Shown: positions 5,199 to 39,865, counted from the stretch's first letter. The stretch: 64,000 nucleotides of DNA from Candidatus Poribacteria bacterium (GCA_964291315.2 OZ219753.1:992001-1056000), one strand, 5' to 3'. The notes: generated by a model from the sequence alone, not told the origin. Numbers and translations are program-made.

Positions 5199-6065
5199 TT
5201 AACGAGTTTGCTTGAGGGATCCCCAGGTTGTGGCTAACTTGTTTTTGGCTTCAACATCGAACGTTCCCTCTTCAGCAAGCCAATTGTTGATAAATTCAAC
5301 AACCCCGATGCCTCGAATATCCGGTTTGTCTGCCCAAATAGGCTGCGATTTTTGCCACATCGCTGCAATCATACCCGTTCCATCTTTACCGGGCGATTTG
5401 CTAACGGCTACGGCTGGATCTGCCGTAGTTTTATCTGCCAATGCGAAAGAGACCACATCCCAATCCGAACCGTCAAACAGTTCAAGGTGCCACGGACGAT
5501 TGGATTTATAGTCTTTAAACGAAGGAAGAACCTTTTTGCCGAGGTCAGTCGCTTCAAAGTTACCACCTCGGTCAGAGAAAGTTAATCCAGGGATATCAAA
5601 GATATTCGCTGCACCTGCGGGGCCGTTATCTGGACTCCGAACACCGCCCTCGTAGCTCATGTAGAAAATCCAATCTGCCACGTTAATGACAACATTCCCT
5701 TCATCAATGAAATTTTCTACATTCGAGCCATCCGGTTTTTTGTTTGGGAACGGATAAAGTCCGCTCGGTGTAGTACCAGAGGCGAGGATAATAACATCTT
5801 GTTGCCCGTTGCCTGTGTGTTCAACACACCATTTTGCGAGTGGGGAATTATCGCCTTCTTCGTCGCCGTCGCCAAAATCTTCTATGCTGTTAAAGAGCGC
5901 TTTGACACCGGGATCGTTCCTGATTACCTTGACATTTTCGGCAACCGCGCCATCAGATATCCACCCAGGGTTAGTTGGGCCTGAGTAAAATGCGAGATCG
6001 TTTGCTGAAACTGTAGCTACGCAGCTGAAAAGAGCAAACAGAGCTACACTTACATAAATTTTCAT
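5199..6065 (-). CDS. secreted protein of unknown function with C-terminal TWG tail
   Basis: Sec signal (..TVSA|ND), paralog of 6173-7051, ends DVEAKNKLATTWGSLKQTR. Confidence 0.85.
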   Translation of the reverse strand: MKIYVSVALFALFSCVATVSANDLAFYSGPTNPGWISDGAVAENVKVIRNDPGVKALFNSIEDFGDGDEEGDNSPLAKWCVEHTGNGQQDVIILASGTTPSGLYPFPNKKPDGSNVENFIDEGNVVINVADWIFYMSYEGGVRSPDNGPAGAANIFDIPGLTFSDRGGNFEATDLGKKVLPSFKDYKSNRPWHLELFDGSDWDVVSFALADKTTADPAVAVSKSPGKDGTGMIAAMWQKSQPIWADKPDIRGIGVVEFINNWLAEEGTFDVEAKNKLATTWGSLKQTR

Positions 6066-6128
6066 AATACACGAAATCTCCTTTTTGATTTCTACCAGTA
6101 TGTGATTTGAAATTTAATGAATATGTGC

Positions 6129-6150
6129 GGGTAGCACGTCCGTGCCACCC
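6129..6150 (-). other. intergenic stem-loop between the paralogs
   Basis: GGGUGGCAC-GGAC-GUGCUACCC, 9 bp with one G-U pair on the minus strand; no clear U tract. Confidence 0.5.
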
Positions 6151-6172
6151 ACAGTTTTACTGAAAAAAACGA

Positions 6173-7051
6173 CTATAGGCTCGATTTAATTCGGCCCCAA
6201 GTTGTCGCTACTTTGTCCTGAGCTTCGACTGGAGTTGTCAAGCTTCCGTGTTCCATGAGCCAGTTAGCGATAAATTCTATAACGCCGACTGCGCGTGGAT
6301 CGTCTCCGTCCCAATCAGGTTGTGCCTTCTGCCACATCGCGGCGATAACGCCGCCGTAGGTTGTGTTAACAGCAACTGCTGGATCGGCGGAATTCGGATC
6401 GTCTTCTGAAAGTGCGAAAGCGGTAACTTCCCAATCTGTCCCGTCAAACTGCTCAAGGTGCCAGGGACGGTCGGACTGGAATCCCATCAACGATGGGAGG
6501 TATTGCTCACCAGCATCTGTGGGCACCTGCGGGCCACCGCGGTTGCCGAAAGAGAGGCCTTCGATGTCAAAAACATTCGCCGCCCCGCTTGGACCGTTAT
6601 CTGCGCTCCGCGTGCCGCCTTCATAGCTCATATACAAAATCCAGTCTGCAACGTTGATAAAAACGTTCCCGTCTTCAACGAAGTTCTCGATGTTGGAACC
6701 GTCGGGATCTACATTCGGGAATTGATAGATCGCACTCGGGGCGGTTCCGGACGCAGCGATGAAAACATCCTGTTGCCCGTTCCCGGTGTGTGCTATCAAC
6801 CATTGACCTAATGGGGAATCGGAACCGACTTCATCACCGTCTCCGTAGTTTTCAATACTTTCGAAAATGGTTTGCATTCTGTCGTCGTTCATGATTGTCT
6901 CAGCGTTCGCAATAGCAGCCTCTTGTGAGATCCAACCCGAGTTTGTAGGGCCCGAGTAGATCGCCAGATCTGCAGCAAACCCACTTGTTAAAACAAGTGC
7001 GAACATTGCTACGCCGAGAGCTGAAATGTGGAAAAGTTGCTTCATTGTCAA
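6173..7051 (-). CDS. secreted protein of unknown function with C-terminal TWG tail
   Basis: AAGGAG RBS, Sec signal (..SGFA|AD), ends PVEAQDKVATTWGRIKSSL; start could be TTG 7051 or ATG 7045. Confidence 0.85.
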   Translation of the reverse strand: MTMKQLFHISALGVAMFALVLTSGFAADLAIYSGPTNSGWISQEAAIANAETIMNDDRMQTIFESIENYGDGDEVGSDSPLGQWLIAHTGNGQQDVFIAASGTAPSAIYQFPNVDPDGSNIENFVEDGNVFINVADWILYMSYEGGTRSADNGPSGAANVFDIEGLSFGNRGGPQVPTDAGEQYLPSLMGFQSDRPWHLEQFDGTDWEVTAFALSEDDPNSADPAVAVNTTYGGVIAAMWQKAQPDWDGDDPRAVGVIEFIANWLMEHGSLTTPVEAQDKVATTWGRIKSSL

Positions 7052-7107: not shown

Positions 7108-7839
7108 TTATTGTCTCAAACTTGCCCATGTGAGAGCAAGCTTGCCTTCAGATTTGACCGCGAGATTAACCTCGCCTGGTCTATCGTAAAGATAAAAATT
7201 GTCAATGTAGTAGTGTTGGAGCTGATTGGTGTGAATACCGAACACTCCTCTTGGATGAAGATTTTTTGGGTCTCTCCACTCGGTAACCTTCTCAAAAACC
7301 AGGGCGCCCTGCTCCTTGATGTAGAGTTGGAACATATTGCCGTCTCCGAGCAGTGCGAGCGTGTACCACTGTTTTGATACGACCTCAATCGGCAATTCCG
7401 TTCTGAGTTCGCGATACTCGTTCCAGGTACCCCGATCATTCCCTTCACGTTTGTACCAACGTGCAGAATTCGGGCGCCCCGCCCCATCAGCAGGTGTAAT
7501 AATCAATTGATAGAAGTGAAGGTCCTCGTTAGCGCGAAATAACAATTCCATTTTGCTTGCGAAAGGATCGACGAGCAAATGGAAGTCAAGCCGTAGCCCG
7601 AAATCCTCAAATTCTATCAGTCCGTAGCCAAAATCAACGTCCCCGTTACCATCGCCTTCAACTCTGTGGATTTCCAGATGGCCGCCTTTTACGTCCCAGG
7701 ACTCCTCTTGGCCCTTCCAGTACTTATCGTTCAGTTTCCCGCCCTTAAAGTCGTCGGCTACGAGAAGCTCTGCGGTGCTCATCTCACACAATAGCAGAAT
7801 CGACACTAACAAGACAAGAGAGATAACTCTCTTTTGCAC
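7108..7839 (-). CDS. secreted ConA/LamG-like (DUF1080-like) beta-sandwich protein with TWG-like tail
   Basis: Probable GTG start at 7839 after GGAGGG; signal peptide; 'DDF..W..SWDVKGG', 'WYTLAL', 'GVFGI..YIDNF' pattern; ends AVKSEGKLALTWASLRQ. Confidence 0.7.
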   Translation of the reverse strand: MQKRVISLVLLVSILLLCEMSTAELLVADDFKGGKLNDKYWKGQEESWDVKGGHLEIHRVEGDGNGDVDFGYGLIEFEDFGLRLDFHLLVDPFASKMELLFRANEDLHFYQLIITPADGAGRPNSARWYKREGNDRGTWNEYRELRTELPIEVVSKQWYTLALLGDGNMFQLYIKEQGALVFEKVTEWRDPKNLHPRGVFGIHTNQLQHYYIDNFYLYDRPGEVNLAVKSEGKLALTWASLRQ

Positions 7840-8051
7840 GGCAGTTCCCTCCAATTTTTTAATATCACATAAAATGAGTATTCGATTTAATAGTGATTCC
7901 GCGAGATTTGACATAAACTGCTGAAGCCTTAAACATCTACGGACATGTCAAACCATACCTCTTGACCTATTTTGCTGTTTACGTGTCAAACCTGCTGACG
8001 TGCGCAAGGCGCACAACAGGGAACCCAACAGTGAGTGCCTCCCCCTGTAAT

Positions 8052-8101: not shown

Positions 8102-8398
8102 GAAAAGGCAGCAAACCTTTAAAGTTTCCAAAACCGGCTTGTAATACGCGTAATATAAAATAATTAACGTATGTAGAGCATGGGGAGGGCACGCCTTGCT
8201 AAAAAGCAAGAGAACAGCAGAACTTCGCAGATAGGAAGCGCGCTGCACAGTGGAAATATTGCCGCGGAACCTTGGCGTTCCGGGTAGTGTCTTAACCGTT
8301 AAAGCTTTCATGCGTTTCATTGCTGGATGAACCAACGGTGATAGGGTTAACACGCCCTATCGATTTTACCTGCGGAATTATCTTCTTTCATACTTTCT
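8052..8398 (-). ncRNA. candidate structured non-coding RNA or attenuated leader, ~345 nt, family not recognised
   Basis: Bounded by a consensus promoter and a terminator; at least 8 hairpins whose G-U pairs work only on the minus strand; no credible CDS. Confidence 0.55.
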
Positions 8399-8476
8399 AC
8401 TTTAATTATACATTAAACTGTCAAGTATGTCAATTTTTTTTACATTCTATCGATTTTACCTCGGAATTGTCTTCTT
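8357..8476. repeat. imperfect ~30-bp direct repeat flanking the promoter
   Basis: CTATCGATTTTACCT(G)CGGAATT(A/G)TCTTCTT at 8357-8387 and 8447-8476. Confidence 0.85.
8405..8433 (-). promoter_or_regulatory. perfect-consensus sigma70 promoter
   Basis: TTGACA-N17-TATAAT on the minus strand with an A tract just upstream. Confidence 0.85.
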
Positions 8477-8543: not shown

Positions 8544-11483
8544 CTATTCTGTTTCAGTTTCTTCTTCCTTTTTTATTGCCCCGTTATTCTGCCAATTCTC
8601 CGCTTTTTCTTTGAGTTTTTCAAGGTCTTCTGGTTTCTTGATATCAACGATATGCGGGGTAATAATAATTACGATCTCAGTATTTTCAACAGTTGTTTCG
8701 GTGTCTTTAAAGAGTCTACCGATCAAAGGAATATCGCCTAAGATCGGGAGCTTGTTTTCGACCTCTTTCTGTTTCTGTCGTATGATACCGCCAACCACAA
8801 TCTGCTGTCCATCTTCAACATCGATATAGACACTAATAGCGTTGTCATCAGTAATAGGTGCGTTGAACGCGGTGAACTCGATGAAATTGCTAGCGCTGAT
8901 GTTTTCAATATTTAAACCAATTGTCCGTTTGCCATCTTCACCGACTTGCGATTTAGCGATATAAGGCGTGAGGGAAATGTTAATACCGACTGGTGGATCG
9001 ATGAAATCATAGTTGAATAGCGGTTGTGAGACAGCCTCGCCCAAAATGCTAGTCGTATCAACGCTCTGGAGATAGGGAATGCGTCGCCCGCTACTCCATG
9101 TAGCGTTCCATGAATCTCGCGTTAAAAGCGATGGTGTTGATAGTGTCTGCACTTTGTTCTCGCGAATGAGCGCGTGGAGCAAAGACATGTATTCCTTGGT
9201 TGCTAAACCGATGTTAAAACCGGAAATTTCTTGATCAATCCCGAGCTGACTTTCGAATTCTCCGACGAGGGGGTTACCAGGGCTTGCTGTGACACCGAAG
9301 ATTCTATTCTCTTTTGCAGTGAGCTCAATCCCGAGCTTCGTTGTCTCATCAAGTGTAACTTCCAGGATCTGGATGTCTATCCACACTTGTCCGCGCACAA
9401 AATCTAATTTACTGATCAGAGCTTTAACAGCTGGGAGGTAACGTTGCTGGGTTGTGACGATGAGTGAATTGGTATCGGTGTCGGCAAAAATAGTAACTTT
9501 TCCACGTAAGGAGTTAATGTCTTGTTGTTCTTGTCTGCCGCCTGATGCGAAAAAACGACTGAAGCTAAAACCGCCGCCGCTATCGTCCCCTTCCCAGACC
9601 TGTTGCAGGACCTGCTGCAGTTGTTCGGCATTGCCGTACTCTAAGCGAATTGTCTCCGTAATTTCTCTCTGCCCCTCGGGTGTTGGCACATCCATGGAGT
9701 TGATAAATTCTGTGATGAGCTCAAAATTGCGTTGCGTTGCTGTAGATACAATCACAGCATTGAGCGTCGGGTAGGCTTCAGCTGTTACGTTCCCGGCGAG
9801 TGATCCTTGGGTCTGATTCCTTTGGCGTTCGGCAAGGAAAAAGAAGAAGTTCCCTGTGTTCCCTGAGCTCCCTTGGTAGACGTTGTTAATGACGGCTGCG
9901 ACGTTCTCTGCGTCTGCATATTTGAGTTTATACATTCGCGTGCCCCATTCCTGGTCTGGCATATTGACGTCAAGTTTTTGGATGAGTCCGTCGATCGTCT
10001 CAAAGTTCTGGGCGCTTGTAGAGATAAGGATGGCATTGAGTCTCAAATCGGCAACGAGATGCACCTCGCCTTGCACTCCAAATCCGCCGCTGCTTTCTTC
10101 ATTAGATCGCCGGGGTCGACGTTCCCACCATGGACGATCTCTGTCTCTACCGGCACTGCCGCCTTCAAAAAGGTCCTGTAGGCTCGGCACGAGCGTCTCA
10201 GCGTCTGCAAACTTAAGAAAATAGAGTCTGATTTCTTCTTGTGTCTGTTCTTGGTCAAGTTCTGCGATAATTTTTTCGATGATAGAGAAATTCCGCGGAT
10301 CTGAGGAGACAACCAGGATGTTGAGTCGTGCATTGTGAGAAACGTTGATGTTGCCAACGATTCCCTGCGATTGATCTACGCCTTGTTCACGTTGGAACTG
10401 TCTAAACTTTGCGCGCTCCCAAGCGTCCATTCTGCCTCTATTTTGGTTACGTTCGCCCGTAAGAATCTCTTGAAGTATTTCAGCGACATCCTCAGCAGAC
10501 GCATAATCGAGGCGGAAGGTCCGTATTTGTGTCTGTAAGCTCGGTGCGACATCGAGCTCTTTAACGATCTCTCGGAGGAACACCAGGTTTGCCTCAGAGG
10601 CTTTCAGCACTAGTGAATTAGAGCTTGTTTCAGCAACGATCTTGATTGCGCCGTCTAGAACCTCATAGCCGACACCGCCGGCTTTCATCTCCGCGGCTGC
10701 CTCGACTGCTTCTTCGGCACTCATCCCTGGGCCACTGCTTTTGGCCTGTCTGTTGTCGTCGTCTGTCCCCTGAAAAATGTTGGTCAACGTTTGGGCCAGC
10801 GTGCCTGCTTCAGCATACGCAAGCGGCATAATGAGGATCTTTAGCGGGAAACGTTCCCCCTCGTCAGCGACTTGGAGAATGGAAACGATGCGCCGTATAT
10901 TCGAGGCGACATCCGTTATAATGAGCGTATTTGTGGCGGTGTCTGCAAAGATGTTTGCCTGTTTATTCAGAAGCGGTTTCAACCTGTCTACTTGTTCGGA
11001 GGCAACCACGCTATTTAATTGGATGATGTAGGTTTGAATCTCGTCTGTCATATCGACGAGATCAGGATCGGGTGCAATATTTTTGACAGTGCCTTTTGTT
11101 GCTATCGCGCGAGCGAACGTTGTAATTAAGAGCGTGTTATCAGTCTGAATGAGCGTGAGGTCATACTGGGTCAAGACAGTTTTAATTTTTTCTATGATCT
11201 CTTCAAGGGTTACATTTCTCAGGTTAATCAGTGAAAATCTTTTATCTCGGATGTCCTCTTCGCTGGCGATAATTGTGAGATCTGTTTCTCGTGAAAGCCA
11301 CTGAAATAAGCCTTTTAGTTCTTGGCTGGTAAAGTTAAAGTCAAAACGAATTGCCCGGCCCTCTTCGTCTGTTTGGGCGACGCGCATTGTAGGTTCTTGT
11401 TCCTGCGCGAGCGGTTCAACGAGTGCAACGGTGAACAGGCCCAGACAGAGCAGTGAGATAGATAAAAGTTTGCGTCCTTGCAT
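8544..11483 (-). CDS. gspD: type II secretion secretin GspD with expanded N-domains
   Basis: Signal peptide, N0 domain, six Secretin_N-like repeats, core motifs QVWIDIQILEV, STPSLL, DGQQIVVGGII, KLPILGDIPLIGRLFK, IIITPHIV. Confidence 0.92.
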   Translation of the reverse strand: MQGRKLLSISLLCLGLFTVALVEPLAQEQEPTMRVAQTDEEGRAIRFDFNFTSQELKGLFQWLSRETDLTIIASEEDIRDKRFSLINLRNVTLEEIIEKIKTVLTQYDLTLIQTDNTLLITTFARAIATKGTVKNIAPDPDLVDMTDEIQTYIIQLNSVVASEQVDRLKPLLNKQANIFADTATNTLIITDVASNIRRIVSILQVADEGERFPLKILIMPLAYAEAGTLAQTLTNIFQGTDDDNRQAKSSGPGMSAEEAVEAAAEMKAGGVGYEVLDGAIKIVAETSSNSLVLKASEANLVFLREIVKELDVAPSLQTQIRTFRLDYASAEDVAEILQEILTGERNQNRGRMDAWERAKFRQFQREQGVDQSQGIVGNINVSHNARLNILVVSSDPRNFSIIEKIIAELDQEQTQEEIRLYFLKFADAETLVPSLQDLFEGGSAGRDRDRPWWERRPRRSNEESSGGFGVQGEVHLVADLRLNAILISTSAQNFETIDGLIQKLDVNMPDQEWGTRMYKLKYADAENVAAVINNVYQGSSGNTGNFFFFLAERQRNQTQGSLAGNVTAEAYPTLNAVIVSTATQRNFELITEFINSMDVPTPEGQREITETIRLEYGNAEQLQQVLQQVWEGDDSGGGFSFSRFFASGGRQEQQDINSLRGKVTIFADTDTNSLIVTTQQRYLPAVKALISKLDFVRGQVWIDIQILEVTLDETTKLGIELTAKENRIFGVTASPGNPLVGEFESQLGIDQEISGFNIGLATKEYMSLLHALIRENKVQTLSTPSLLTRDSWNATWSSGRRIPYLQSVDTTSILGEAVSQPLFNYDFIDPPVGINISLTPYIAKSQVGEDGKRTIGLNIENISASNFIEFTAFNAPITDDNAISVYIDVEDGQQIVVGGIIRQKQKEVENKLPILGDIPLIGRLFKDTETTVENTEIVIIITPHIVDIKKPEDLEKLKEKAENWQNNGAIKKEEETETE

Positions 11484-11595
11484 AAATCCGATCCTTTTGA
11501 AGGGGTGTTAATTGTCGGGTATCAACTTCGGGTTACTATTTAATTCCACAATATCTGGTTTAACCGAAAACTGACGACCCATAACCGATACATAT

Positions 11596-12846
11596 TTAAA
11601 ATATTCGAGCGACAAGAAATATATCCACATTTAATTCTGATGCCCTGTCGCTTCCTGGATTCCGACCGCGCGCTGCCATGGAGCGCGATTCAGCCTGCTT
11701 ATCAGGGGAGATTCGCAGGTCGCGCACTGTTAGCCACTTCGCATTTGTTTCGAGAAGATAATTTAATTTTACGAGCTTTTCGAGATCTGTTTTGAATTTC
11801 ATCTCCGCCACATACATTTCGGTTTGATAGGTTGGCGGTGCTGATGCCAGTCGATCGACAAGCTCTGCTTGTTGTTCTTGGATCTTTTTGACATACTCAA
11901 CAAGTGCGCGCTGCACTTTGTCTGGATCTAACGGTTCTTCGGTCTCGACTGTGTCTAGCGCCTCATTGAGAAAATCCAATAGCTTGCTATCTGCCCGCAA
12001 CTGGACTTCGACAGTAGCAGGCTTTGCCCCGATACCGAAAATACCGGATACGGCGGGAACTGTGGTTTTGTGAACTTGGGTGTCAAAGAAACCGTGTGTG
12101 AAGTCTGTTGCCCCGCGTAAATCCTGCAGTGTCATGGCCTTGATGAACGCTGCGAGTTTAATGCGAATCGAAATAGGGATGGTTTCCGGAAGCGGTGCAA
12201 ATTTCCATGCTGCTGCTGCTGCTATCGGATCCGTTGGCCGGGTGTTGTGCTTGGGTTCCTGTTTTTGCGTGACGGGTTCTGGCTCCTTGTCGTTTTCACT
12301 GCCAGAGAGCCATGCGTCCATGAGGTTTTTGAAGGCGCCTATGCCTTCCTGTGGTTCAACAATTGCTATAAGTTCCTGTTCTTCTGCCTCTAGATGTTTG
12401 AAGTAGAGGTAGCGCACCAGGTTTTCCCGTGTTTGCATGGTCAGTTTTTGGGTCTGTTTAGCAGTCCCCGGTTTTGTGAGAAGTTGATAATTTTGCTGGA
12501 TACCGGCTCTTCTAACAAGTGCGTCAATGTGTGCCCGAACAACAGTTTCCGGAGACCCTCTGTCAAAAAGCGTAACAGCGTTTTGTACACGAGGTGCCAT
12601 CCGTGAAGCCGGAGGGGCTAGTCCTGTCGCCTTGTAAATTTCATATTCAACTGCTTTGAATATACCGGCGGCGTAGACTAAATTCTCGCTTTTTAACAAC
12701 TCCTCTTGTCTTGCTTCAATATCTCTATTTGTAAACAGATCGTAAAAAGCCGGGACGACTTGTAGCCCAAGCATAGCTAAAAGCAGACACCCCAAAATAC
12801 CGAGTAAGATTTTAATTCGAGGCGTTAATTCAAAATTCAATTCCAT
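11596..12846 (-). CDS. GspM/PilO-like assembly-platform protein
   Basis: N-terminal TM, C-terminal ferredoxin-like 'LEKLVKLNYLLE..WLTVRDLRI' pattern, position between gspL-like gene and gspD. Confidence 0.6.
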   Translation of the reverse strand: MELNFELTPRIKILLGILGCLLLAMLGLQVVPAFYDLFTNRDIEARQEELLKSENLVYAAGIFKAVEYEIYKATGLAPPASRMAPRVQNAVTLFDRGSPETVVRAHIDALVRRAGIQQNYQLLTKPGTAKQTQKLTMQTRENLVRYLYFKHLEAEEQELIAIVEPQEGIGAFKNLMDAWLSGSENDKEPEPVTQKQEPKHNTRPTDPIAAAAAWKFAPLPETIPISIRIKLAAFIKAMTLQDLRGATDFTHGFFDTQVHKTTVPAVSGIFGIGAKPATVEVQLRADSKLLDFLNEALDTVETEEPLDPDKVQRALVEYVKKIQEQQAELVDRLASAPPTYQTEMYVAEMKFKTDLEKLVKLNYLLETNAKWLTVRDLRISPDKQAESRSMAARGRNPGSDRASELNVDIFLVARIF

Positions 12847-12900
12847 GAGCGACCTTTCTATAAACGCGCATGTTTCTCAAAAACAGCGAAGACGGGCGTT

Positions 12901-14727
12901 TTATTCGTCTTTTTCATTGTCTCTATTTTCGTCAGTTTCCGACGCGGGTTGGTTATCGTTAGATTCGGGCTCTGTTTGCATCTCATCTGTCGACGCGGGT
13001 TGGTTATCGTTGGATTCGGGCTCTGTTTGGATCTCATCTGCTGATAGCTCAGGGGGCGGGTAGCGTTTCTTCGCGAACGCCCGGACAGCAGAGGCGGTAA
13101 GGTTACATCGCACCTGCACTTGGAAAGCCTGTCTCCCACTTTGAGCTGCGGTTGTAACCTCGCCCGCTTGAACGTTGGTAAAAACCTGTGAGCGGTTGAG
13201 GGTTGCCAAGAGGGAATTGATTGCGTTGTGTGAGCTACTCTCTAGGTTGAAGGTAATACGTGCGTTTTCTGGTACGTTGAGATTGGTAATATTGAAGTTG
13301 GTCCACGCCACCTGTGTCCTATCTCGAAACATCTCGCTGAGCACGTGGAGGATATCGAGGGGCGAGATATGATGCGCTAGCATGTCTGTGATTGCTAATT
13401 CCCGACTGAGCTGCACCTTGGCTGATGCCATAGGTTGTGCGTAATAGGCGAGTTGTCTGTTCACTGCATCCGACTTGTGCTGCTGCGTGCGGTGGAGCGT
13501 ATAGCTGCTAAAAAGGCCCCCACAGATAATCAGGGCGCCTAATCCGGCGGAGGCGAAAAGTTGACGTTGGCGTGTTGACTGGGTCAGCATTTCGACGGCT
13601 TCTTTCGGCAGGAGCGACACTTTTGTTGCAGGGTTTACGGCATTAAGAGCAACCCCTAGGGGTACAGCGAGGGTGTCCCCCCATTCATCGAGAGCTGCTT
13701 TTACTTGAGCGCTTGCGAGGTGCATGTCAATACCTTCGGAGTGCTCGAGAGCGTCAACGGGATTCCAGAGGCGTGTTATTCTGCCGAGGTCAGTTTCACA
13801 AGCCGTTGTTAGTTCGGGAAGGCGCGAGCCGCTGCCACATAGCCAGAGCTCGGCCTCAATTTCTGAGGGTGTGAGGGCTTCGGTGCCGCCTACATTTTCT
13901 GGTCTCCCAAGGTCATCAGTTTCTGAATATATCTTTGAGGCAGCAATTGAACGTCGGAGTTCGCTAATGAGATGCGCTGTCCATTCAGATGCAAGCGGTT
14001 CCGTGGTCGAGACGTGCTGCTGTTCCTGGACTGCTCCGGCATCAATGTTGGGTGCATGGTTCTGACGTTCAGAAGAAGGTTGTGCGGAGAGCCTGAAACT
14101 CCGCGAGAACCGAAGAACCCCATCTTGTATGAAGCAGAAGTCTGCGTGTTCAGTCCCGATGTCAACGATGAAAGTTGGTTGTGTGCAAGCGCTTCTGGCG
14201 GCGACTTCAGCAATGGCTATGGTTGAAGGTATGACGGCAGAGGCCGACACGCCGATTTGTTCGAGAAAATGGAGGTAATCTGTGACTGTGGAGCGGCGAG
14301 TCGATATTAGCTCAACTGAAACTCCGTCTGAGATGCGCTGGACATCGTGGTAGGTAAAGATCGCCTCATCGACCCGAAAAGGGAGCTCTGTTTCTGCTGC
14401 GAGGGCGACGATACCGGCGAGCTGCTGATCGGTTGCGTCTGGTAGGTTTCCTAAACGTTTTGTACTCACTAGGAACCGTGGAAGAGCAACCGCGATTTCT
14501 GTGCGATTTCTGCTAAATAGGGAAAGAAAGTTATGCTGCGTCAGTCGGTTGTCTAAGGATTTCCAAAGCTGGGCTACGGAGTCGACAGCTTGCTGTCGAT
14601 CTGCTCCATCTGAATACGTCACAACGTTCGCATTGATGAGATGCACACCTGTGGACGATAGCTCGAGTTGAACCATTTTCGCTGTGTTTGTGCCGATATC
14701 TATCGCCACGACTTGGTTTTTTCCCAT
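12901..14727 (-). CDS. GspL-like protein (PilM actin-like domain + TM + PilN-like domain)
   Basis: VAIDIGTNTAKMVQL, IVDIG, LCGSGSRLPEL, 'VSLLP' before the TM, then a periplasmic domain. Confidence 0.8.
   Translation of the reverse strand: MGKNQVVAIDIGTNTAKMVQLELSSTGVHLINANVVTYSDGADRQQAVDSVAQLWKSLDNRLTQHNFLSLFSRNRTEIAVALPRFLVSTKRLGNLPDATDQQLAGIVALAAETELPFRVDEAIFTYHDVQRISDGVSVELISTRRSTVTDYLHFLEQIGVSASAVIPSTIAIAEVAARSACTQPTFIVDIGTEHADFCFIQDGVLRFSRSFRLSAQPSSERQNHAPNIDAGAVQEQQHVSTTEPLASEWTAHLISELRRSIAASKIYSETDDLGRPENVGGTEALTPSEIEAELWLCGSGSRLPELTTACETDLGRITRLWNPVDALEHSEGIDMHLASAQVKAALDEWGDTLAVPLGVALNAVNPATKVSLLPKEAVEMLTQSTRQRQLFASAGLGALIICGGLFSSYTLHRTQQHKSDAVNRQLAYYAQPMASAKVQLSRELAITDMLAHHISPLDILHVLSEMFRDRTQVAWTNFNITNLNVPENARITFNLESSSHNAINSLLATLNRSQVFTNVQAGEVTTAAQSGRQAFQVQVRCNLTASAVRAFAKKRYPPPELSADEIQTEPESNDNQPASTDEMQTEPESNDNQPASETDENRDNEKDE
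12940..13040. repeat. 51-bp in-frame tandem duplication
   Basis: Two copies with 2 mismatches, encoding DE(I/M)QTEPESNDNQPAS. Confidence 0.95.
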
Positions 14728-14829
14728 TTTTTTAACGACTGCTCCTCAGCAGGGTTGTCCTTGTCAACGTTGATTTAAAATTAGAGATGCATTGAGACAG
14801 TAGGTGCGCTGGATTAAAAGTTTGACGAT

Positions 14830-16410
14830 TTAAAAATCTTGCCGCCAATATTGGAGCTGCATCTCATTGCCTGTTCGGTCAATGATACCGATACATGTTG
14901 AAATAGTTTCCCCGGCGATATCGACCCCGTTTGCTTCGATTCGGTATCCGTGTGAGCGGTAGGTCACCCAGTCAACTACTTCGCGAAACGTGTCGAAGTC
15001 AATCTCTGTTAGTTCAGAGAGTTGTGAGATATTCGTAAACGGATTTCCGGTTATTTCTTCATCCGTAAAGCTTTGTATTTGCGAAGTATCGGGAGGGTCT
15101 TGCTCCCTGCGTGTGACAATTGCTAACGCCTTTTCTGGGTCCATCCCGGGTAGTAGTGCCAAGATCTCCGGTGGGGCTGTATTTATATTAATCAGTCCGC
15201 TCCGGGTTTCCTCATCTTTTAGTGTTATTTTATCGACAATCGCGATGAATTCTTGCTGTGTTAACATTTTGACATCTTTGATAGCGTCAATGTTCTGAAA
15301 AACCCCTTGTGTGTCTCGATGGTTGACAAGCCGCTCGGCGATTCCTTGATCTACCCCTGGTAAGGTTTCTAGGGTTTCAACATCAGCGGTATTAATATTA
15401 ATTTGCCCATTTTCGTCTTGCTGTTGCCTGTTTTGTGCGTTGGGATCGCTGTTTTCCTCGCCTTGTGTGTCTTCAGCTGATTCTTCGGTAGTCAACCGGT
15501 TTTGAATATTGTTGAAAATTTCGTCGGAGACGGCTTGGACATCTACTAGTGCGGCAAGCTTGTCGACATCGCGTTGCTGGATCAGTGATTCCGCCTCGCC
15601 TTGTGTAAAGACAGGTTGCCCTTGCTGCCCGTTGATGTTGGTCAGTGCAGCTGCCTCGGCGGTGTTAATATTGACCAGTGCTTGCCCCTCCGGATCTGTG
15701 CTTGCGTCGATGGAATAGATAGTAGCCAAGTCAACAAGCCCAGGTTGTTTATCGGTTGCGGATGCCTGTGGATTACCGGGTGCTGCCCCGCTATCCCTTC
15801 CCGCTGTCATGCTGGTTTGTGTGGAACCACTTGCCTGCTGTGCCCCGTAGAGAAGCTCGGCGGTCATGCCGTCTACTCGAGCGAGATCTCGGACTGTGCG
15901 GTAGGGCTGCCCTTCCACGATTTTGTTGGCAAGTTCTTCGGTTAACATATCATCTGGATTGGCCCCGGCTTGGGCGAGCAAATTGCTGATGATGCCTGCA
16001 TCGGCGGTATTGACATTCACTTTTGATGCCTCATCCGTGATAGTTACACGATAGTTTAAGTAATTACCGGGTTGGACTCCATCTTCGATCTGTCCTTCAA
16101 GCGGGTTGACCCAGCTTTCCCCGAGTGAATCGAAAGGTGTCTGGTCATCACGCATCCGCGCCAGTGTCCATTCGAACCCGGCTCTCGCGGCGTAGTGAAA
16201 TTTGGCTCTGTCCAAGAAATTCCGCTGCGTCCGTTGCTCTATATGAATGGAATAGAGGAGCTGCGTTGCCAAAATTGAGAGGATCGTCAGTATCCAGAGG
16301 GTTGAAATGAGGGATAAGCCGCGCTGCTCCTTGCATAGTGAGTGAAAAGTCTGCTTTATAAACTGCCGCATTTGTCCATTTTCCCTAGCGTTCGGCTCCT
16401 GCAGTAGCAC
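14830..16410 (-). CDS. gspK: minor pseudopilin GspK with multiple HhH repeats
   Basis: G|LSLISTLWIL prepilin site without E5, DSLGESW, ITDEASKVNVNTA, four xNxNTA repeats; real start may be 16371. Confidence 0.85.
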   Translation of the reverse strand: MLLQEPNARENGQMRQFIKQTFHSLCKEQRGLSLISTLWILTILSILATQLLYSIHIEQRTQRNFLDRAKFHYAARAGFEWTLARMRDDQTPFDSLGESWVNPLEGQIEDGVQPGNYLNYRVTITDEASKVNVNTADAGIISNLLAQAGANPDDMLTEELANKIVEGQPYRTVRDLARVDGMTAELLYGAQQASGSTQTSMTAGRDSGAAPGNPQASATDKQPGLVDLATIYSIDASTDPEGQALVNINTAEAAALTNINGQQGQPVFTQGEAESLIQQRDVDKLAALVDVQAVSDEIFNNIQNRLTTEESAEDTQGEENSDPNAQNRQQQDENGQININTADVETLETLPGVDQGIAERLVNHRDTQGVFQNIDAIKDVKMLTQQEFIAIVDKITLKDEETRSGLININTAPPEILALLPGMDPEKALAIVTRREQDPPDTSQIQSFTDEEITGNPFTNISQLSELTEIDFDTFREVVDWVTYRSHGYRIEANGVDIAGETISTCIGIIDRTGNEMQLQYWRQDF

Positions 16411-17356: not shown

Positions 17357-17373
17357 TCCGACTCTATTGGTCT

Positions 17374-17811: not shown

Positions 17812-17847
17812 TTGTGGGAAACGCTTCAGATACGGTGGAACGGGTGC

Positions 17848-18573: not shown

Positions 18574-18655
18574 ATTTCACTCCTGCCGTTAACGCTCTTG
18601 AAGTGTCTCTGATGATAACCTATAAACAAGCCTTGATAGTGCCGCGACACTGCGT

Positions 18656-19111: not shown

Positions 19112-19214
19112 TTTTCTGTTTCTCCTCTATTGGCTATCAGTCGACCGCTTCACCGGCCGCAGTTGTTTAGAACACGTTTGATTAAACAGTGTCCATTTTA
19201 ATGCGTATCGGCTG

Positions 19215-20441: not shown

Positions 20442-20491
20442 AATGCATCCTCCGTTATATTTTTTGACAGTAGGGATGGCCTAAAAACGTT

Positions 20492-22258: not shown

Positions 22259-22454
22259 GATGTGTATGCTCCAATACATGAACCCACTAGAGCGATTCCC
22301 GCTCTATTTTTCTGTTAGTACGTCAACTTTTTGAACGATTCTCGCCTCTATTTTTAAGACGTAACAGGGGCGAATAAGTTTAACACGGGTCTAAAACAGA
22401 TTCTTTAGTCTTAAAGAAAAACTGTTGGATATCATAAGGGTTAATATATACTAT

Positions 22455-33687: not shown

Positions 33688-34146
33688 ATTAAAATGTATG
33701 TCCTTACGCGCCGCTATTTTTTAAGGTGCGAACCTATGTTGTAACTCCAGATGTCATTCAAGGGTGCTGGAAATCGGGCGGTTTCTCAAAGAAAACGGCA
33801 CTGAAGTAACACTTAAATATAGAGAACTGAGGTTTTCCCTCAGCGTAAATTTGACGTGTAAGTAAGAGAGAGTGGATTCGCAATTTCTGCGTCCATCACT
33901 GGTATTATAGAGTGTTGATCTTTGCAGTTTCAAGCTGTATCTGTTGCTCATCCTATCGTCAGATTTTGTTATTTTTTTTTTTCTGAAATCTAGCGTGAGT
34001 GCGATATAGAGAATAATGGGGGGAGTTGAGAGAGATTCTCGGCATAAAGTTGATTTCGTAAAGAGAGGGCATGGATTTGTCAACCTTGACTCCATCTCTT
34101 ATCTTGTCTATCTTTAACTTAACAATAACAGAGGAGAATGCACGTA

Positions 34147-36993
34147 ATGTTATGGAATAAAATTAGAATTTTCGTGGTTTTAGGGATCATGTTTGTCTTT
34201 GCAACCACACACACTTTTGGTATCTTTGGACCTGTAACTGGCACGGGTAACGATGCCTATCAGCAGTGGACTCAACTCAAGAAAGCCAAGGGCTTTTCGA
34301 TCATTATGAAGAGTTACGCTCTCATTGTTGCCACTCCTAAAGTTGACAGAAGTATTGGCGTTAACCAGCGTATAGCTAACGATGTACATGGGCAGGAAGT
34401 CGATGATTTGGCAGACCTGAAGGATTTACTGGTGCGCGGCGGCGCCATCACAATTTCAATGCGGGTGCCGACGGCAGCCGAAATTACCAGCGATGGCGCT
34501 GACAAGCATAGCCTGAAAGCCGATGCGTCAGCTGCGGATCTGATGAAGATGAAGCACCGTGTCGTCATCACCGAGGTGAATTGGGGGACGGATACCCCGC
34601 ACAGAACCGGTGCGCAATGGTTTGAACTCTATAACGCCGGCACTTTGAAATCCAAGGATTATATCAGATGGCGCACGCATGCCAGTTTAGACGCCGCCGC
34701 TGTCCCTGAACCGGGTAAGACGTTCATGTGGGACGATGACGGTAATGGGGAGCGCAAGTTTGTTGTTTTGGATCGTGTCGCCACGATCGATCGTTTTGGT
34801 AACCCGTGGGAGCTGAAAGGTGCGGATGGCGATACTGCCGATGGTGAGCCCGATGCTGATCCTTCTACCACTGAGATTGATCTACCTACCGATAGGGATA
34901 CCGGGGATCCTGACAATGCGATGACCTCCATGTATCGCAAGATCGATCTAGATGACACGGGTATGGCGTATAAAGTGGAAGGCGGAAAACTGAAAGGCCT
35001 CGGAGAAGGCAACGCAGCCAGCTCCTGGGAGGCGTCTAAATATAAGGGTAAGTATATCCTCTATGGCAATTACAAAGGGAGTCCCGGGGCAGTCCACTCG
35101 AAAAATCCGGGTGGCCCGGGTGCAGCCTTGTTTAATATGACCCCCGCCTCTATCTCTCACACAGGCATCATCATCAACGAGGTGCGAAACGACTCTTCAG
35201 ACGAGAACTTGGATTGGATAGAGCTGTTCTATAACAGTGATGATCCCGAAGCCAAGCCTGTGAATATAGAGAACTATAAGCTGAGCCTGGTGATGGGGAA
35301 GATGAAGTCTGATGGCAGCTATCACGAGTCGGGTGATGCCAACTTCACGGAGACCAAACTCGCTGTGCTGCCGAAATACGAGATGACACCGGGCGAGTAT
35401 GTAGTGGTCTATAACCGGGAGCCTGGGAAGAGTGTTACGTTTGCTGGCGGTGAAAAACTTCAGGATCTCTCTGCGAAAACGCACATCAAAAAGGGTGCCA
35501 CACACAAGTATGTGGTAGAGGCAGACCTGAAGCTGCCTGCTGAAGGCAAGTTCTTGATCCTGCTGCGCACGCGGAATAGTGCGGATGACGTTGGCAAGCC
35601 GTCAAATGTCAAAGATTATGCCGGCAACGGTTTCTTTAAGCGCATGGAAGATAAGAAGTTCGATACGAGTGTGTGGCCGTTTGTGGCGTGGTCTGCCCCG
35701 GGAGACGTTGAGGACTTCGGTAGCATGAACACCTTCGCCTCTACGAGTATGTCGTTCGGTCGGGGGGCCCAGTTGAGCTCGAAGGGCATGTATTGGGCGA
35801 AGTCTCGTGCGAACCGTGTTCACAAAGACGATTGGATGACGTTCGGTTTCATGGGTGCTGGCTACGATCGCGGGCGCGATAAAACGGTTGACACAGCGAG
35901 TGCCCCTGGCACGCCGGGGTATCCGAACATAGGGGTGAGTATGATCGCGGATGACAAAAACACCGCATCGACTGACGATGACTACGTCTTCGATGGGAAA
36001 GTGAGCATCAGCGAGATTATGTTTGATGCGGGGCCGCGCTCGAACTTGGCGCAGTGGATAGAGTTGTACAACAGCTCTATGACAGAGACGCTAGACCTTG
36101 CGGGCTGGGAGTTAGAGGTTCGCAATGAGCGGACAGAGATGGGTTCTTATGTCAATGCGAAGTTCACATTTGCTGCGGACACGTATCTGCCGCCGAATCA
36201 GACGTTGCTGCTGGTGTCGAACAATGGTGCGAACGATGTTGCGGAGAACTACGTCTATAACTTGCAGGAGAAGCACGGGACTGCTCTGGGTTTGACAGTG
36301 CGGGGTCGGCAGCTGCTGAGTGCGGCGGGCTTCCATCTGGAGCTTCGTGCGAAGGTCAACACAAGCGGTGACTCGGCGTTGATGGTAGTAGACACAGCTG
36401 GCAACCTTGAGATATCGGGGACGGTGCGCACCCACGCCTGGGATTTGCCCGAGCGCGGTGAGATGCGGATGTCTATCACCCGCACGTATAAAGGCGGTTC
36501 CAATCCGGATGATGGTTTGATGCAAGCCTCTTGGCGGCAGGCAAACCTAGCAGGTGCCTCGCTGACGTACTACGGACACCGGGACGATATCGGTTCCCCT
36601 GGCTACCGGGTCGGTGGTCCGTTGCCGGTTTCACTCTCGAGTTTCCGTCCTGTGCGCGATGCCTCGACGGGCCACGTTGAGATTACCTGGGTAACGCAGT
36701 CCGAGCTCAACAACGCGGGGTTCAATATCCTGCGCAGCGAAAGCAAGACGGGTGAGTTTGCGGTTATCAACACGAAGGGTCTGATTGCCGGACACGGCAC
36801 GACGTCCGAGAAGCATGTGTATCGCTACACAGATACCGCTGCGAAGCCGAACGTGGTGTATTACTACCAGATAGAAGACGTCTCTATGGACGGGGTGCGG
36901 ACGACGTTACGGACGACGCATCTGCGTGGGGATGTCTCTGCAAGTGGTAAGCTCACAACGCGGTGGGGAGAGCTGAAATCGTCTGACAAATAG
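34147..36993 (+). CDS. large secreted lamin-tail-domain (LTD) protein, paralog 1, with TWG tail
   Basis: Signal peptide; three I[TNS]E[VI]...W[FI]EL[YF] LTD-type repeats; LPVSLSSF Ig-like domain; ends GKLTTRWGELKSSDK; ATG 34147 fits the GAGGAG spacing and the paralog start. Confidence 0.85.
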   Translation: MLWNKIRIFVVLGIMFVFATTHTFGIFGPVTGTGNDAYQQWTQLKKAKGFSIIMKSYALIVATPKVDRSIGVNQRIANDVHGQEVDDLADLKDLLVRGGAITISMRVPTAAEITSDGADKHSLKADASAADLMKMKHRVVITEVNWGTDTPHRTGAQWFELYNAGTLKSKDYIRWRTHASLDAAAVPEPGKTFMWDDDGNGERKFVVLDRVATIDRFGNPWELKGADGDTADGEPDADPSTTEIDLPTDRDTGDPDNAMTSMYRKIDLDDTGMAYKVEGGKLKGLGEGNAASSWEASKYKGKYILYGNYKGSPGAVHSKNPGGPGAALFNMTPASISHTGIIINEVRNDSSDENLDWIELFYNSDDPEAKPVNIENYKLSLVMGKMKSDGSYHESGDANFTETKLAVLPKYEMTPGEYVVVYNREPGKSVTFAGGEKLQDLSAKTHIKKGATHKYVVEADLKLPAEGKFLILLRTRNSADDVGKPSNVKDYAGNGFFKRMEDKKFDTSVWPFVAWSAPGDVEDFGSMNTFASTSMSFGRGAQLSSKGMYWAKSRANRVHKDDWMTFGFMGAGYDRGRDKTVDTASAPGTPGYPNIGVSMIADDKNTASTDDDYVFDGKVSISEIMFDAGPRSNLAQWIELYNSSMTETLDLAGWELEVRNERTEMGSYVNAKFTFAADTYLPPNQTLLLVSNNGANDVAENYVYNLQEKHGTALGLTVRGRQLLSAAGFHLELRAKVNTSGDSALMVVDTAGNLEISGTVRTHAWDLPERGEMRMSITRTYKGGSNPDDGLMQASWRQANLAGASLTYYGHRDDIGSPGYRVGGPLPVSLSSFRPVRDASTGHVEITWVTQSELNNAGFNILRSESKTGEFAVINTKGLIAGHGTTSEKHVYRYTDTAAKPNVVYYYQIEDVSMDGVRTTLRTTHLRGDVSASGKLTTRWGELKSSDK

Positions 36994-37008
36994 CAGACAC
37001 AACATATA

Positions 37009-37054
37009 ACGCAAGCTCGATACATATTCATGCAAATATGTGTCAAGTTTGCGT
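37009..37054 (+). other. 20-bp intergenic hairpin
   Basis: ACGCAAGCUCGAUACAUAUU / AAUAUGUGUCAAGUUUGCGU, 1 mismatch, 2 G-U pairs, no U tract. Confidence 0.7.
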
Positions 37055-37081
37055 CACCAATAACAGAGGAGAACAAAAATA

Positions 37082-39865
37082 ATGTTATGGAATAAAATGA
37101 GAGTTTTGGTAGTGTTAGGGCTTGTGTGTCTCTTTGCAACCCCCCAGGCTTCCGCGCTTAACATTGTGACGGGAGGTTCCCAAACCCACCTGCTTAAAGC
37201 CAAAACGTTCCTTATCTGGGCGAAAGCTACCGCGGATTCAGCGGTCTCTGCTAATAACGGCATCACGGACGCAGCAACAGGGAAGGTGTACGGCAGTTGG
37301 TCCTCCACAGCTGATCCAAAGTACACCTATCTTTGGGGTGACCTACGGGATAGACTCGAAGGCGGTCATGGGATAGTCATTACATTGCGAGCGCCGTCAC
37401 AGACTGATTTTGATAACGAGGACAAAGAGTATAGCTTGAAACCTAATCCGACAGCGGAGGAGGCGATGAAGCTCAAGCACCAACTCGTTATCACCGAAGT
37501 AATGTGGGGACAAGATGTGCCTTCAAGAGCATTTACCGCAGATAATCCGCAGTGGATAGAACTCTACAGCCAAGGCGCTATGAAAAAGAACGATGCCATC
37601 GGCATGCAAAATACTAGAATTAATCTTGACGCTCTAGTGCCTCGCGCAGGTGAGATGTTTGAGCGTGAGGAAACCGTTGGAGGGGTCAAGGTCAAGCGCA
37701 AGTATGTCGTTCTGGATCGTGTACACACGGTCGATCGCTTTGGCCGGCAGTGGAAACTGAAAGGTAGCAACGGGGATACCGACGGCAACTCAGAGAAGGG
37801 CATAGCTCCGATGCCCATGGTCTCTATGTATCGGAAGATCGAACTGGATGCCACAGGCAAGGCGTATGCCTATGAAAACGGAAAACTGAAGGGACTCGGA
37901 GAGGGCAGTGAACCCGGTTCCTGGGAGACTTCGGTCGGCTCGATTAACATCGAGGGTCAGTATATCGGGTCCCCCGGCAGCGTTCATGTGCCTTTGGGCG
38001 GTCCACATGTTGTCAACTTTGATATGAAACCTGCGGCTATCTCCCCTACCGGTATTATCATCAACGAGGTGCGAAACGATACGTCAAGTGTGAACTTGGA
38101 CTGGATAGAGTTGTTCTATAATAGCGATAGTGCCTCGGATGCGCCCGTGAATATAGAGAACTACCAGCTGAGCCTGGTGATGGGCAAGATGATGACGGAT
38201 GGTAGCGGGTATCACGAGTCTGGGGATGCCAACTTCACGGACACGAGCTTGGCGGTGCTGCCGAAATATAGTATGAAGCCGGGCGAGTATGTCGTGATCT
38301 ATAACCGAGACCCGGGGCGCGGTATTGCTTTCGCTGGGGGTACGAACCTTCAGAGTCTCTTGGACGACTCGGATGTCAACACGGGAGCCTCACACAAGTA
38401 TGTGGTTGCGAAGGATCTAAAACTTCCGGCTGAAGGCAAGTTCCTGATCCTGCTGCGCAACGCAAAAGAGAAGCTGAAAACGGCGGATAATGTCATAGAC
38501 TATGCGGGCAATGGTTTCTTCACACGGGTAGAAGATAGGAAGTTCAATACAGACGTTTGGCCGTTCGTGGGATGGATGTCCCCGGGAGACGTTGAGGACT
38601 TCGGTAGCATGAATACCTTCGCCTCTCGGAACATGTCTTTTGGTCGGGGTGTGCAGATCAATTCGCAGGGCATGTATTGGGCGAAGTCTCGTGCGAACCG
38701 CGTTCACAAAGACGACTGGCAGTCGTTTGGGTTCATCGGCACTGGCTACGACCGCGGCAAAGATAGATCTGTTGACACAGTGACGTCCCCTGGCACGCCG
38801 GGGTATCCGAACATGGCGGTGAACAACGTCTCCGAGGGCGACTACACGTTTGATGGCAAAGTGAGCATCAGCGAGATTATGTATGATACGGGGCCCCGCT
38901 CGAACTTGGTGCAGTGGATAGAGTTGTACAACAGCTCTATGATGGATACGGTGAACCTTGAGGGGTGGGAGTTAGATATTCGCAACCAGGAGACAGGCGG
39001 CTTGTATGTCGACGCAACCCTCACCTTTAAGGCAGGGGCGTATATCCCGCCGAATCAGACGCTGCTGCTGGTCTCGAGTAGTGCTGCGAACGATGTTGCG
39101 GATAACTATGTCTACAACCTGTTGGAGAAGCACCGTAGTGATCTCAGGTTGACGGCGTCTGGTCGGCAGCTGCTGAGTGCGGCGGGCTTCTATTTGGAGC
39201 TGCGTGCGAAGGTCAGCGGTGGCGATCCGATGGTTATGGATGCAGCCGGCAACCTTGAGGTAGACGGTACTTCACTCACGAAGATGTGGGATTTGCCCGG
39301 AAGCGGTGAGATGCGGACCTCTATTGTGCGGACCTATGGAGGTGTGTTCAACGACATGACAGAGGGTTCTGGACCGCACGATGCGAATGATGGGACGATG
39401 GCGGCCTCGTGGCGGCAGTCTAGTATGGCCTCGTTGACCTTCTACGGGCAGCGGAGCGATATCGGCTCCCCGGGTTATCGGCGCGGTGGCCCGTTGCCGG
39501 TTTCACTCTCGAGTTTCCGTCCTGTGCGCGATGCCTCGACGGGCCATGTTGAGATTAGCTGGGTAACGCAGTCCGAACTCAACAATGCGGGGTTCAATAT
39601 CCTGCGCAGCGAGAGCAAGACCGGCGAGTTCAAGGCTATCAACGCCGAGGGTCTGATTGCGGGGCACGGCACGACGTCCGAGAAGCATGTGTATCGCTAC
39701 ACAGATACGACTGCGAAGCCGAATGTGGTGTATTACTACCAGATAGAAGACGTCTCTATGGACGGGGTGCGTACGACGTTACGGACGACGCATCTGCGTG
39801 GGGATGTCTCTGCGAGGGGTAAGCTCACGACGCGGTGGGGAGAACTCAAATCGTCTGACAAATAG
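37082..39865 (+). CDS. large secreted lamin-tail-domain (LTD) protein, paralog 2, with TWG tail
   Basis: Same architecture as 34147-36993; shares the CAATAACAGAGGAGA upstream sequence. Confidence 0.85.
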   Translation: MLWNKMRVLVVLGLVCLFATPQASALNIVTGGSQTHLLKAKTFLIWAKATADSAVSANNGITDAATGKVYGSWSSTADPKYTYLWGDLRDRLEGGHGIVITLRAPSQTDFDNEDKEYSLKPNPTAEEAMKLKHQLVITEVMWGQDVPSRAFTADNPQWIELYSQGAMKKNDAIGMQNTRINLDALVPRAGEMFEREETVGGVKVKRKYVVLDRVHTVDRFGRQWKLKGSNGDTDGNSEKGIAPMPMVSMYRKIELDATGKAYAYENGKLKGLGEGSEPGSWETSVGSINIEGQYIGSPGSVHVPLGGPHVVNFDMKPAAISPTGIIINEVRNDTSSVNLDWIELFYNSDSASDAPVNIENYQLSLVMGKMMTDGSGYHESGDANFTDTSLAVLPKYSMKPGEYVVIYNRDPGRGIAFAGGTNLQSLLDDSDVNTGASHKYVVAKDLKLPAEGKFLILLRNAKEKLKTADNVIDYAGNGFFTRVEDRKFNTDVWPFVGWMSPGDVEDFGSMNTFASRNMSFGRGVQINSQGMYWAKSRANRVHKDDWQSFGFIGTGYDRGKDRSVDTVTSPGTPGYPNMAVNNVSEGDYTFDGKVSISEIMYDTGPRSNLVQWIELYNSSMMDTVNLEGWELDIRNQETGGLYVDATLTFKAGAYIPPNQTLLLVSSSAANDVADNYVYNLLEKHRSDLRLTASGRQLLSAAGFYLELRAKVSGGDPMVMDAAGNLEVDGTSLTKMWDLPGSGEMRTSIVRTYGGVFNDMTEGSGPHDANDGTMAASWRQSSMASLTFYGQRSDIGSPGYRRGGPLPVSLSSFRPVRDASTGHVEISWVTQSELNNAGFNILRSESKTGEFKAINAEGLIAGHGTTSEKHVYRYTDTTAKPNVVYYYQIEDVSMDGVRTTLRTTHLRGDVSARGKLTTRWGELKSSDK

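Follow-up and report, generated by a model that had tools for sequence, protein, structure and literature searches.

A C-terminal tail shared by five proteins of the window

The stretch of DNA analyzed here (64,000 nucleotides [nt], hereafter the window) comes from a Candidatus Poribacteria bacterium (GCA_964291315.2, OZ219753.1:992001-1056000) and carries the operon of a type II secretion system (T2SS) together with five genes for proteins that begin with a signal peptide and end in the same short peptide. We refer to this peptide as the tail and to the proteins that bear it as carriers. The source assembly comprises 4.40 Mb in four contigs and is 95% complete, the window corresponding to C4:992001-1056000. 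The five carriers of the window are as follows.

Carrier 1, 5199..6065, minus strand: 288 amino acids (aa), with a signal peptide, an alpha/beta body, and the tail as its last 20 residues (nt 5202-5261); no Pfam match
Carrier 2, 6173..7051, minus strand: 292 aa, a paralogue of carrier 1 (59% identity); tail at nt 6176-6235
Carrier 3, 7108..7914, minus strand: 268 aa by the longest open reading frame (ORF); no Pfam match; tail at nt 7111-7164, ending in W-A-S-L-R-Q
Carrier 4, 34138..36993, plus strand: 951 aa, a lamin-tail-domain (LTD) protein, one of 26 paralogues; tail at nt 36928-36990, with R-G-D before it
Carrier 5, 37082..39865, plus strand: 927 aa, a tandem LTD paralogue of carrier 4; tail at nt 39800-39862

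On translation, the five ORFs and tails given by the initial annotation were recovered letter for letter, each with a conserved K or R followed by 1 to 4 residues before the stop. The true start of carrier 3 is probably the GTG at 7839, and the longest ORF of carrier 4 opens at 34138, the position 34147 named in that annotation being a plausible internal start. When the five proteins were compared to Pfam and NCBIfam, LTD was the sole family match and the tail itself was unmatched.

A strictly C-terminal motif across the genome

In the whole genome, 101 ORFs end in the tail, which spans about 17 residues with the consensus L-x-V-[ED]-[PA]-x-x-K-L-[TA]-T-T-W-[GAS]-x-[LIV]-K. A family-weighted profile anchored on the Trp gave V(-10) in 98%, K(-5) in 93%, L(-4) in 94%, W(0) in 100%, and K(+4) in 98% of the tails, with L at -12. 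After K(+4) come 1 to 9 residues, mostly 2 to 4, rich in S, R, and K, and the terminal residue is K or R in 55 of the 101 carriers. A loose regular expression matched 85 times among 15,879 ORFs (at least 60 aa), each time 1 to 9 residues before the stop and always in the last 19 residues, a zone with only 12.7% of the ORF residues. The same expression produced a single match on reversed sequences and 0 to 2 on five shuffles. A hidden Markov model (HMM) trained on the tails found in this way retrieved the 101 carriers (at least 150 aa), all with the match at the C terminus, which represent ca. 2.9% of a crude set of 3,538 genes; exactly five of them are inside the window. Such a scan had been proposed in the initial annotation. 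The matches of the regular expression are far above its reversed and shuffled controls. The description of the motif as strictly C-terminal, made from the five carriers of the window, also applies to the genome as a whole, where all 101 tails lie 1 to 9 residues from the stop and none is internal. Nonterminal HMM matches were few, weak, and at the level of chance, plus one partial match to an LTD-type tail in an 83-aa ORF. This ORF (G000:C4:571012-571263, plus strand) begins with the tail fragment, 265 nt downstream of a SprA-like gene (see below), and is probably the remnant of the 3' end of an LTD gene.

The tails are written with varied codons, and this variety, together with the conservation by position, indicates that it is the peptide on which selection acts. 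Among 40 orthologues of carrier 1 (59 to 90% identity), V271, K276, T279, and W281 are invariant, so the tail is constrained as strongly as the protein core. Among the 101 carriers, the longest stretch without a charged or polar-breaker residue in the final 30 residues is 9 residues, which leaves no transmembrane (TM) helix, and the best 15-residue hydropathy window had a median of 0.10. As a strand, the tail had a hydrophobic moment of 1.19, and as a helix one of 0.78. In the AlphaFold model of carrier 1 (predicted template modeling score [pTM] of 0.81), residues 271 to 288 have a predicted local distance difference test (pLDDT) score of <50, with a short low-confidence helix, and the tail is thus predicted to be a disordered, exposed peptide. 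A second model, that of a LamG carrier, was poor (mean pLDDT of 54), with the tail again as its least confident part, and was otherwise left unused.

Export signals and folds of the carriers

By a crude test, 96 of the 101 carriers have a signal-peptide-like N terminus, compared to 796 of 2,666 background ORFs (30%; Fisher P = 2e-42), which extends to the genome the enrichment on signal-peptide proteins noticed in the window. The five carriers that failed the test have hydrophobic N termini visible by eye. A lipobox-like site was found in only two of the 101.

Without their tails, the carriers fall into 28 blastp clusters genome-wide; the three unrelated families reported at the outset hold inside the window. 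With 33 LamG-type members and 26 LTD members (910 to 1,007 aa), two clusters are the largest. Pfam matches above the cutoffs included Laminin_G_3, 3keto-disac_hyd, CBM_4_9, CBM9_1, NPCBM, GH43_C2, Kelch, PD40, HmuY, a zincin peptidase, and LTD, and PA14 was matched only weakly among the cluster representatives; altogether, the carriers cover at least 12 Pfam domain types. The model of carrier 1 is an alpha/beta fold, weakly similar to GATase1/ThuA-like structures (TM-score of ~0.4). The tag is portable across unrelated folds, and the majority of carriers consist of a single binding module. The tail is a genuine tag under selection, confined to the C terminus of signal-peptide proteins whose folds are unrelated.

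The 26 LTD paralogues include eight adjacent pairs, and their tails are nearly identical. R-G-D is found at positions -13 to -11 in 20 of them (RGE in three, RGN in two, and HGD in one) and in none of the 75 other carriers. In matrix proteins of animals, RGD is the tripeptide bound by integrins, and its presence on LTD carriers is intriguing for a sponge symbiont but may be due to chance.

Distribution of the tail

A DNA pattern for the core of the tail had at least one match in each of the 121 Poribacteria genomes sampled. The number of matches per genome was 40 to 127 in the family of the window and 7 to 77 elsewhere in the order, with 0 to 2 for the reversed control. An apparent loss of the tail in genus g13 (one match each in G008 and G013) turned out to be an artefact of the pattern, which demands Leu(-4) and Thr(-2). 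These two genomes encode 22 to 23 LamG homologues ending in a drifted variant of the tail, so the pattern undercounts such lineages and there is no natural loss in this genus. In the five deepest-branching genomes, 20 of 20 sampled matches are located 1 to 5 residues from the stop. Pro(-8) is not conserved in the deepest-branching families (e.g., G002, G006, and G004; L304-L315), where a Cys often precedes the Trp (T-T-C-W-G), a lineage-specific variant that a coevolving reader should mirror.

We also compared a stricter pattern to one genome per species of the public collection. Of the 80 matches listed, 74 were titled Poribacteria and 6 "uncultured bacterium." All homologues of carriers with a named source were labeled Candidatus Poribacteria bacterium, and the search with the LamG carrier returned only close orthologues. 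The mention of similar tails in Poribacteria proteins in the initial annotation is in agreement with these data, as the source-named homologues and 74 of the 80 listed matches assign the tail to this phylum. Among 2.9 million viral contigs, there were 19 pattern matches, of which only four are genuine C-terminal tails, one of them near-identical to a tail of this genome. In a search at the level of abstracts, we found no description of the tail in the literature on Poribacteria sorting and secretion, type IX secretion systems (T9SS), or sponge symbionts. Regarding C-terminal tags in Poribacteria, the accessible text of PMC3909097 mentions only the TIGR04183 domain.

Comparison with known C-terminal tags

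The tail was originally set apart from LPXTG, PEP-CTERM, and GlyGly-CTERM signals and from the T9SS C-terminal domain (CTD), and this distinction is borne out by the lack of a Pfam or NCBIfam match, of a TM helix, and of exosortase or sortase matches. The exosortase family (EpsH, PF09721) had no match in this 95%-complete genome, with a control matched in one reference genome, and neither had sortase (PF04203), with a control matched in three Gram-positive genomes. PEP-CTERM (PF07589) had no genome-wide match, with a control that matched nowhere, and the five window carriers also lacked such a match in Pfam and NCBIfam. As for GlyGly-CTERM, the tail has no TM helix and its profile no Gly-Gly; rhombosortase itself was not searched for. 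No TIGR04183, PF18962, or PF13860 match was found on the carriers, and an HMM built from the T9SS-type domains of this genome retrieves none of them. Finally, none of the 101 carriers has two or more dockerin-like repeats or a PF00404 match.

The tail resembles the tripartite PEP-CTERM, LPXTG, and GlyGly-CTERM signals in being short, portable, strictly C-terminal, and placed on unrelated signal-peptide proteins in many copies per genome, as well as in its V-E-P-like signature and basic end, but it differs from them in the missing TM helix, in a genome without exosortase and sortase matches. With the T9SS CTD, it shares the C-terminal position on homologous exported modules of the same genome, and the two are interchangeable in evolution; however, the T9SS signal is a folded beta-sandwich of ~85 residues, while the tail has ~17 residues, is disordered in the model, and shows no sequence similarity to it. 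Dockerins, the partners of cohesins, are likewise C-terminal docking elements on single binding or catalytic modules, and a dockerin follows the tail position in two orthologues (see below). They are, however, Ca-binding duplicated domains of ~60 to 70 residues with D-x-N-x-DG repeats, which the tail carriers do not have, and we know of no cohesin-like receptor for the tail. Another short C-terminal targeting peptide, the peroxisomal targeting signal PTS1, is read by the soluble receptor PEX5. By analogy, the tail may act as PTS1 does, as a linear peptide needed at the free C terminus that works on any folded cargo, although the two differ in compartment, kingdom, and sequence. Since the final residues of the tail differ in both number and sequence from one carrier to another, the determinant is not the carboxylate itself.

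Alternation with a T9SS-type C-terminal domain

About 45 proteins of this genome end in a FlgD_ig/T9SS-type-A-like domain, detected with our own HMM, and none of them is among the 101 tail carriers. FlgD_ig is abundant in all 121 genomes. The functional domain of 7 of the 101 carriers also occurs in proteins with the T9SS-type domain, with up to 50% identity. In two orthologues of carrier 1, P0034 and P0060 (499 aa, 74 to 75% identity), the tail position is internal and is followed by Dockerin_1 and FlgD_ig. In these internal tails, V(-10) and G(+1) are gone, and one has Q and the other R in place of K(-5), the loss being counted for P0034; among the 40 orthologues aligned, the positions altered show at least 90% conservation or do not vary at all. 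An FG-GAP protein of family f5 (~1,460 aa) has an internal L-x-T-x-W-G-x-V-K directly before FlgD_ig, without V-E-P and K(-5). The two C-terminal modules thus alternate in evolution, as homologues with either module and the decayed internal tails show, and the tail is constrained only when terminal. Dockerin-like repeats were found in 2 of the 45 proteins with the T9SS-type domain versus none of the 101 tail carriers. New here are the alternation of the tail, among homologues, with the T9SS-type domain (alone or together with dockerin) and its decay at internal positions.

A putative docking or targeting tag

Beyond the existence, position, export association, portability, conservation, modeled disorder, and alternation of the tail described above, we infer that it is an address or docking label that would be read by a protein. 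With moderate confidence, we favor a post-export docking or targeting tag recognized by a conserved envelope component. A Sec-exported carrier would fold while its tail stays a flexible, exposed peptide, which the putative reader in the envelope would recognize, either docking the carrier at the envelope or surface or passing it to an outer membrane route. The tag would work only near a free C terminus, and its function would parallel that of the other abundant C-terminal module of this genome, the T9SS-type domain, alone or together with dockerin.

Several points weigh against this reading. In a neighbor analysis of this genome, no family was convincingly enriched beside the carriers that might supply the reader gene, and gspD and the SprA-, PorU-, and PorV-like genes (see below) are no nearer to carriers than the background. 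The gene calls are longest ORFs, the signal peptide test is a home-made heuristic, and the decay of internal tails comes from three gene families only. That carriers would cross the outer membrane is suggested only by the kinds of domains they bear and by the orthologues ending in a T9SS-type domain. TPR proteins were examined as carrier neighbors (P = 1e-4 in a single-linkage cluster) and rejected, as only 3 of the 17 true members are directly adjacent.

Close to 3% of the genes in a dominant, uncultivated phylum of sponge symbionts bear one unexplained tag, and most of these genes encode lectin-like or carbohydrate-binding modules, through which contact with the host matrix or with food polymers is probably made. 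Known C-terminal sorting signals are built either as a signature with a membrane helix or as a folded domain, and a 17-residue tag lacking a TM helix fits neither design, so its reader would probably be a new component of envelope protein sorting. The tag also offers an easy and specific way to flag exported Poribacteria proteins in metagenomes and could serve as a portable handle for localization studies.

The T2SS operon and its proposed link to the tail

The initial annotation had suggested, from adjacency, that the tail is read by the T2SS of the window. The features concerned are the following.

T2SS operon, 8544..22279, minus strand: context, its tie to the tail not being demonstrated
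gspE, 20492-22279, minus strand
gspF, 19215-20441, minus strand
gspG, 18656-19111, minus strand
Three pseudopilin-type genes, 16385-18573, minus strand
gspK, 14830-16410, minus strand
PilM/PilN-like fusion, 12901-14727, minus strand
Gene X, 11596-12846, minus strand: unannotated, bitopic, in the GspC position
gspD, 8544-11483, minus strand: 979 aa, with six Secretin_N stretches
Promoter-plus-leader repeat, 8155..8433, minus strand: between gspD and carrier 3, with a perfect TTGACA-17-TATAAT at 8433-8405

Carriers 1 to 3 are found on the gspD strand directly downstream of this gene, the first being carrier 3 after a spacer of 629 nt, and the LTD carriers 4 and 5 are on the plus strand, 12 kb beyond the opposite end of the operon. 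If the tail were a linear cargo or retention signal of this T2SS, carriers folded in the periplasm would be recognized by the secretin, the pseudopilus tip, or gene X. The gene arrangement downstream of gspD is conserved in part: G033 has orthologues of all three carriers there, and G061 and G045 have one each. Secretin, GspE, and GspF are each single in this genome (blastp), and with GldL, GldM, and GldN not found (see below), the T2SS would be the only complete recognizable outer membrane secretion machine. There is also a precedent for C-terminally tagged cargo of this system, since GlyGly-CTERM proteins leave by the T2SS. Phylogenetic profiling of the tail against gspD, another of the checks proposed, agreed with the link as far as co-occurrence goes, as no tail-bearing genome without a secretin was found among the 121. 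It discriminates nothing, however, because the test covered Poribacteria genomes alone and both the T2SS and the tail are present in every one of them, so profiling cannot separate the two.

The adjacency itself is poorly kept. In other genomes, a tail ORF is found up to 8 kb downstream of gspD in 3 of 18 readable loci (a count in which the HMM may miss drifted tails), and among the 15 without one are a genome of the same genus and all of the 12 genera beyond family f1 that were readable. At 29 other loci of the same genus, a tail ORF is present within 1.5 kb of gspD in 8 and missing from 21, among them those of the eight closest relatives. In this genome, 5.1% of noncarrier genes have a carrier within 700 nt, and the adjacency of gspD and carriers is lineage specific and at chance level. 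The spacer contains a dispersed, possibly mobile repeat with a perfect sigma-70 promoter, so carriers 1 to 3 have their own (predicted) promoter. The 101 carriers occupy 75 loci, and the 98 not next to gspD are scattered over 74 of them. Gene X, considered as a GspC-like reader, was rejected: it is bitopic, lacks a PDZ domain, and, unlike the tail, is poorly conserved. The proposed link to the T2SS is hence unsupported, and we regard the tail as rather unlikely to be a cargo or retention signal of this system. That it would be the first linear C-terminal cargo or surface retention signal of a T2SS, with the single T2SS of the phylum exporting ~100 small lectin-like modules so tagged, is unlikely.

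In the drifted-tail genus g13, the T2SS operon is intact and its genes are in the same order. In the sister genus g2, most genomes have two to three tandem full-length copies of gspD (e.g., G030:C1:3370743-3380325), 61 to 66% identical to the gspD of the window, with four matches in genera g8 and g9. This multiplication of the secretin in g2 is unusual.

T9SS-like machinery and other explanations

Components resembling those of the T9SS are encoded elsewhere in the genome.

SprA-, PorU-, and PorV-like ORFs: G000:C4:564019-570747 (SprA-like); C1:249573-255008; C4:527929-532998; C1:482478-486707; C4:2067302-2068279

The SprA-like ORF (2,242 aa) was matched by the SprA model in four colinear pieces, three PorU-like ORFs (1,757 to 2,137 aa) by the peptidase and C-terminal parts of the PorU model, and two more ORFs are PorV-like barrels, all of them below the curated cutoffs. 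GldM, GldL, and GldN were unmatched in this genome, and GldL and GldN in all 11 genomes searched, with controls that matched nowhere. In its accessible text, the study of Kamke et al. (2014; PMC3909097) reported that Poribacteria bear TIGR04183 domains, did not find structural genes of the Por type, and left undecided how export proceeds. The ORFs listed above bear on that statement of T9SS sorting domains without Por machinery.

The tail might, along these lines, be the minimal signal of a T9SS-like pathway, read, cleaved, or attached by a PorU-like peptidase or by SprA/PorV-like outer membrane proteins. Besides the presence of these ORFs, the tail and the T9SS-type domain hold the same position on homologues, removal of the latter from the fused proteins would expose a tail-like end, and one PorU-like gene is located 1.9 kb from two carriers. 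However, 9.6% of genes are equally near, the machinery matches all fall short of the curated cutoffs, and GldL, GldM, and GldN were not found, albeit with no positive control. In sequence, the tail is unlike the T9SS-type domain, and neither TIGR04183 nor PF18962 matches it; no protein of this genome with the T9SS-type domain has a tail before it. We consider this pathway quite unlikely as an explanation of the tail.

Very doubtful, in our opinion, is an amphipathic Trp/Lys anchor that would bind a membrane leaflet, lipopolysaccharide, or a cell wall polymer directly, with no protein reader. The invariant Trp flanked by invariant Lys, the net basic end, so often closed by K or R, and the amphipathic periodicity given by the hydrophobic moments are what such an anchor would show, and the neighbors of carriers include glycosyltransferases, an epimerase, and methyltransferases. 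Yet the tail offers only three or four hydrophobic side chains, its strict V-[ED]-[PA] and T-T, unneeded for generic lipid binding, point to a specific protein groove, and the near-terminal requirement would go unexplained. A removable C-terminal propeptide or quality control tag, cut near V-E-P by a periplasmic protease and with no sorting role, is highly improbable, for although V-[ED]-[PA] is conserved 5 residues upstream of the K-L-T-T-W core and the modeled tail is disordered and accessible, Pro(-8) has disappeared from the deepest branches, which retain the core, no candidate protease was found beside carriers, and there is no precedent for one propeptide on ~3% of a proteome and at least 12 Pfam domain types.

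The dispersed promoter repeat and a gene next to gspE

The repeat in the spacer between gspD and carrier 3 has seven copies in the genome, the other six being at C4:89107, C4:3083302, C4:1447026, C4:101641, C4:2430533, and C3:168292. It measures ~240 to 280 nt and starts with the perfect TTGACA-N17-TATAAT, kept in all seven copies; then comes a conserved leader, roughly 450 to 700 nt. The first sizeable gene downstream encodes an exported-looking N terminus in six of the seven copies, and three of these genes are tail carriers. Small ORFs that appeared enriched upstream of carriers (e.g., 7979-8353) were discarded as spurious translations of this promoter-plus-leader repeat. An Rfam search of the spacer and the repeat gave no match, and the repeat may be a mobile promoter/5' untranslated region cassette or a regulatory RNA. 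Directly upstream of gspE, the window encodes an N6/N4 DNA methylase fused to a C-terminal HNH endonuclease (22455-23768, minus strand).

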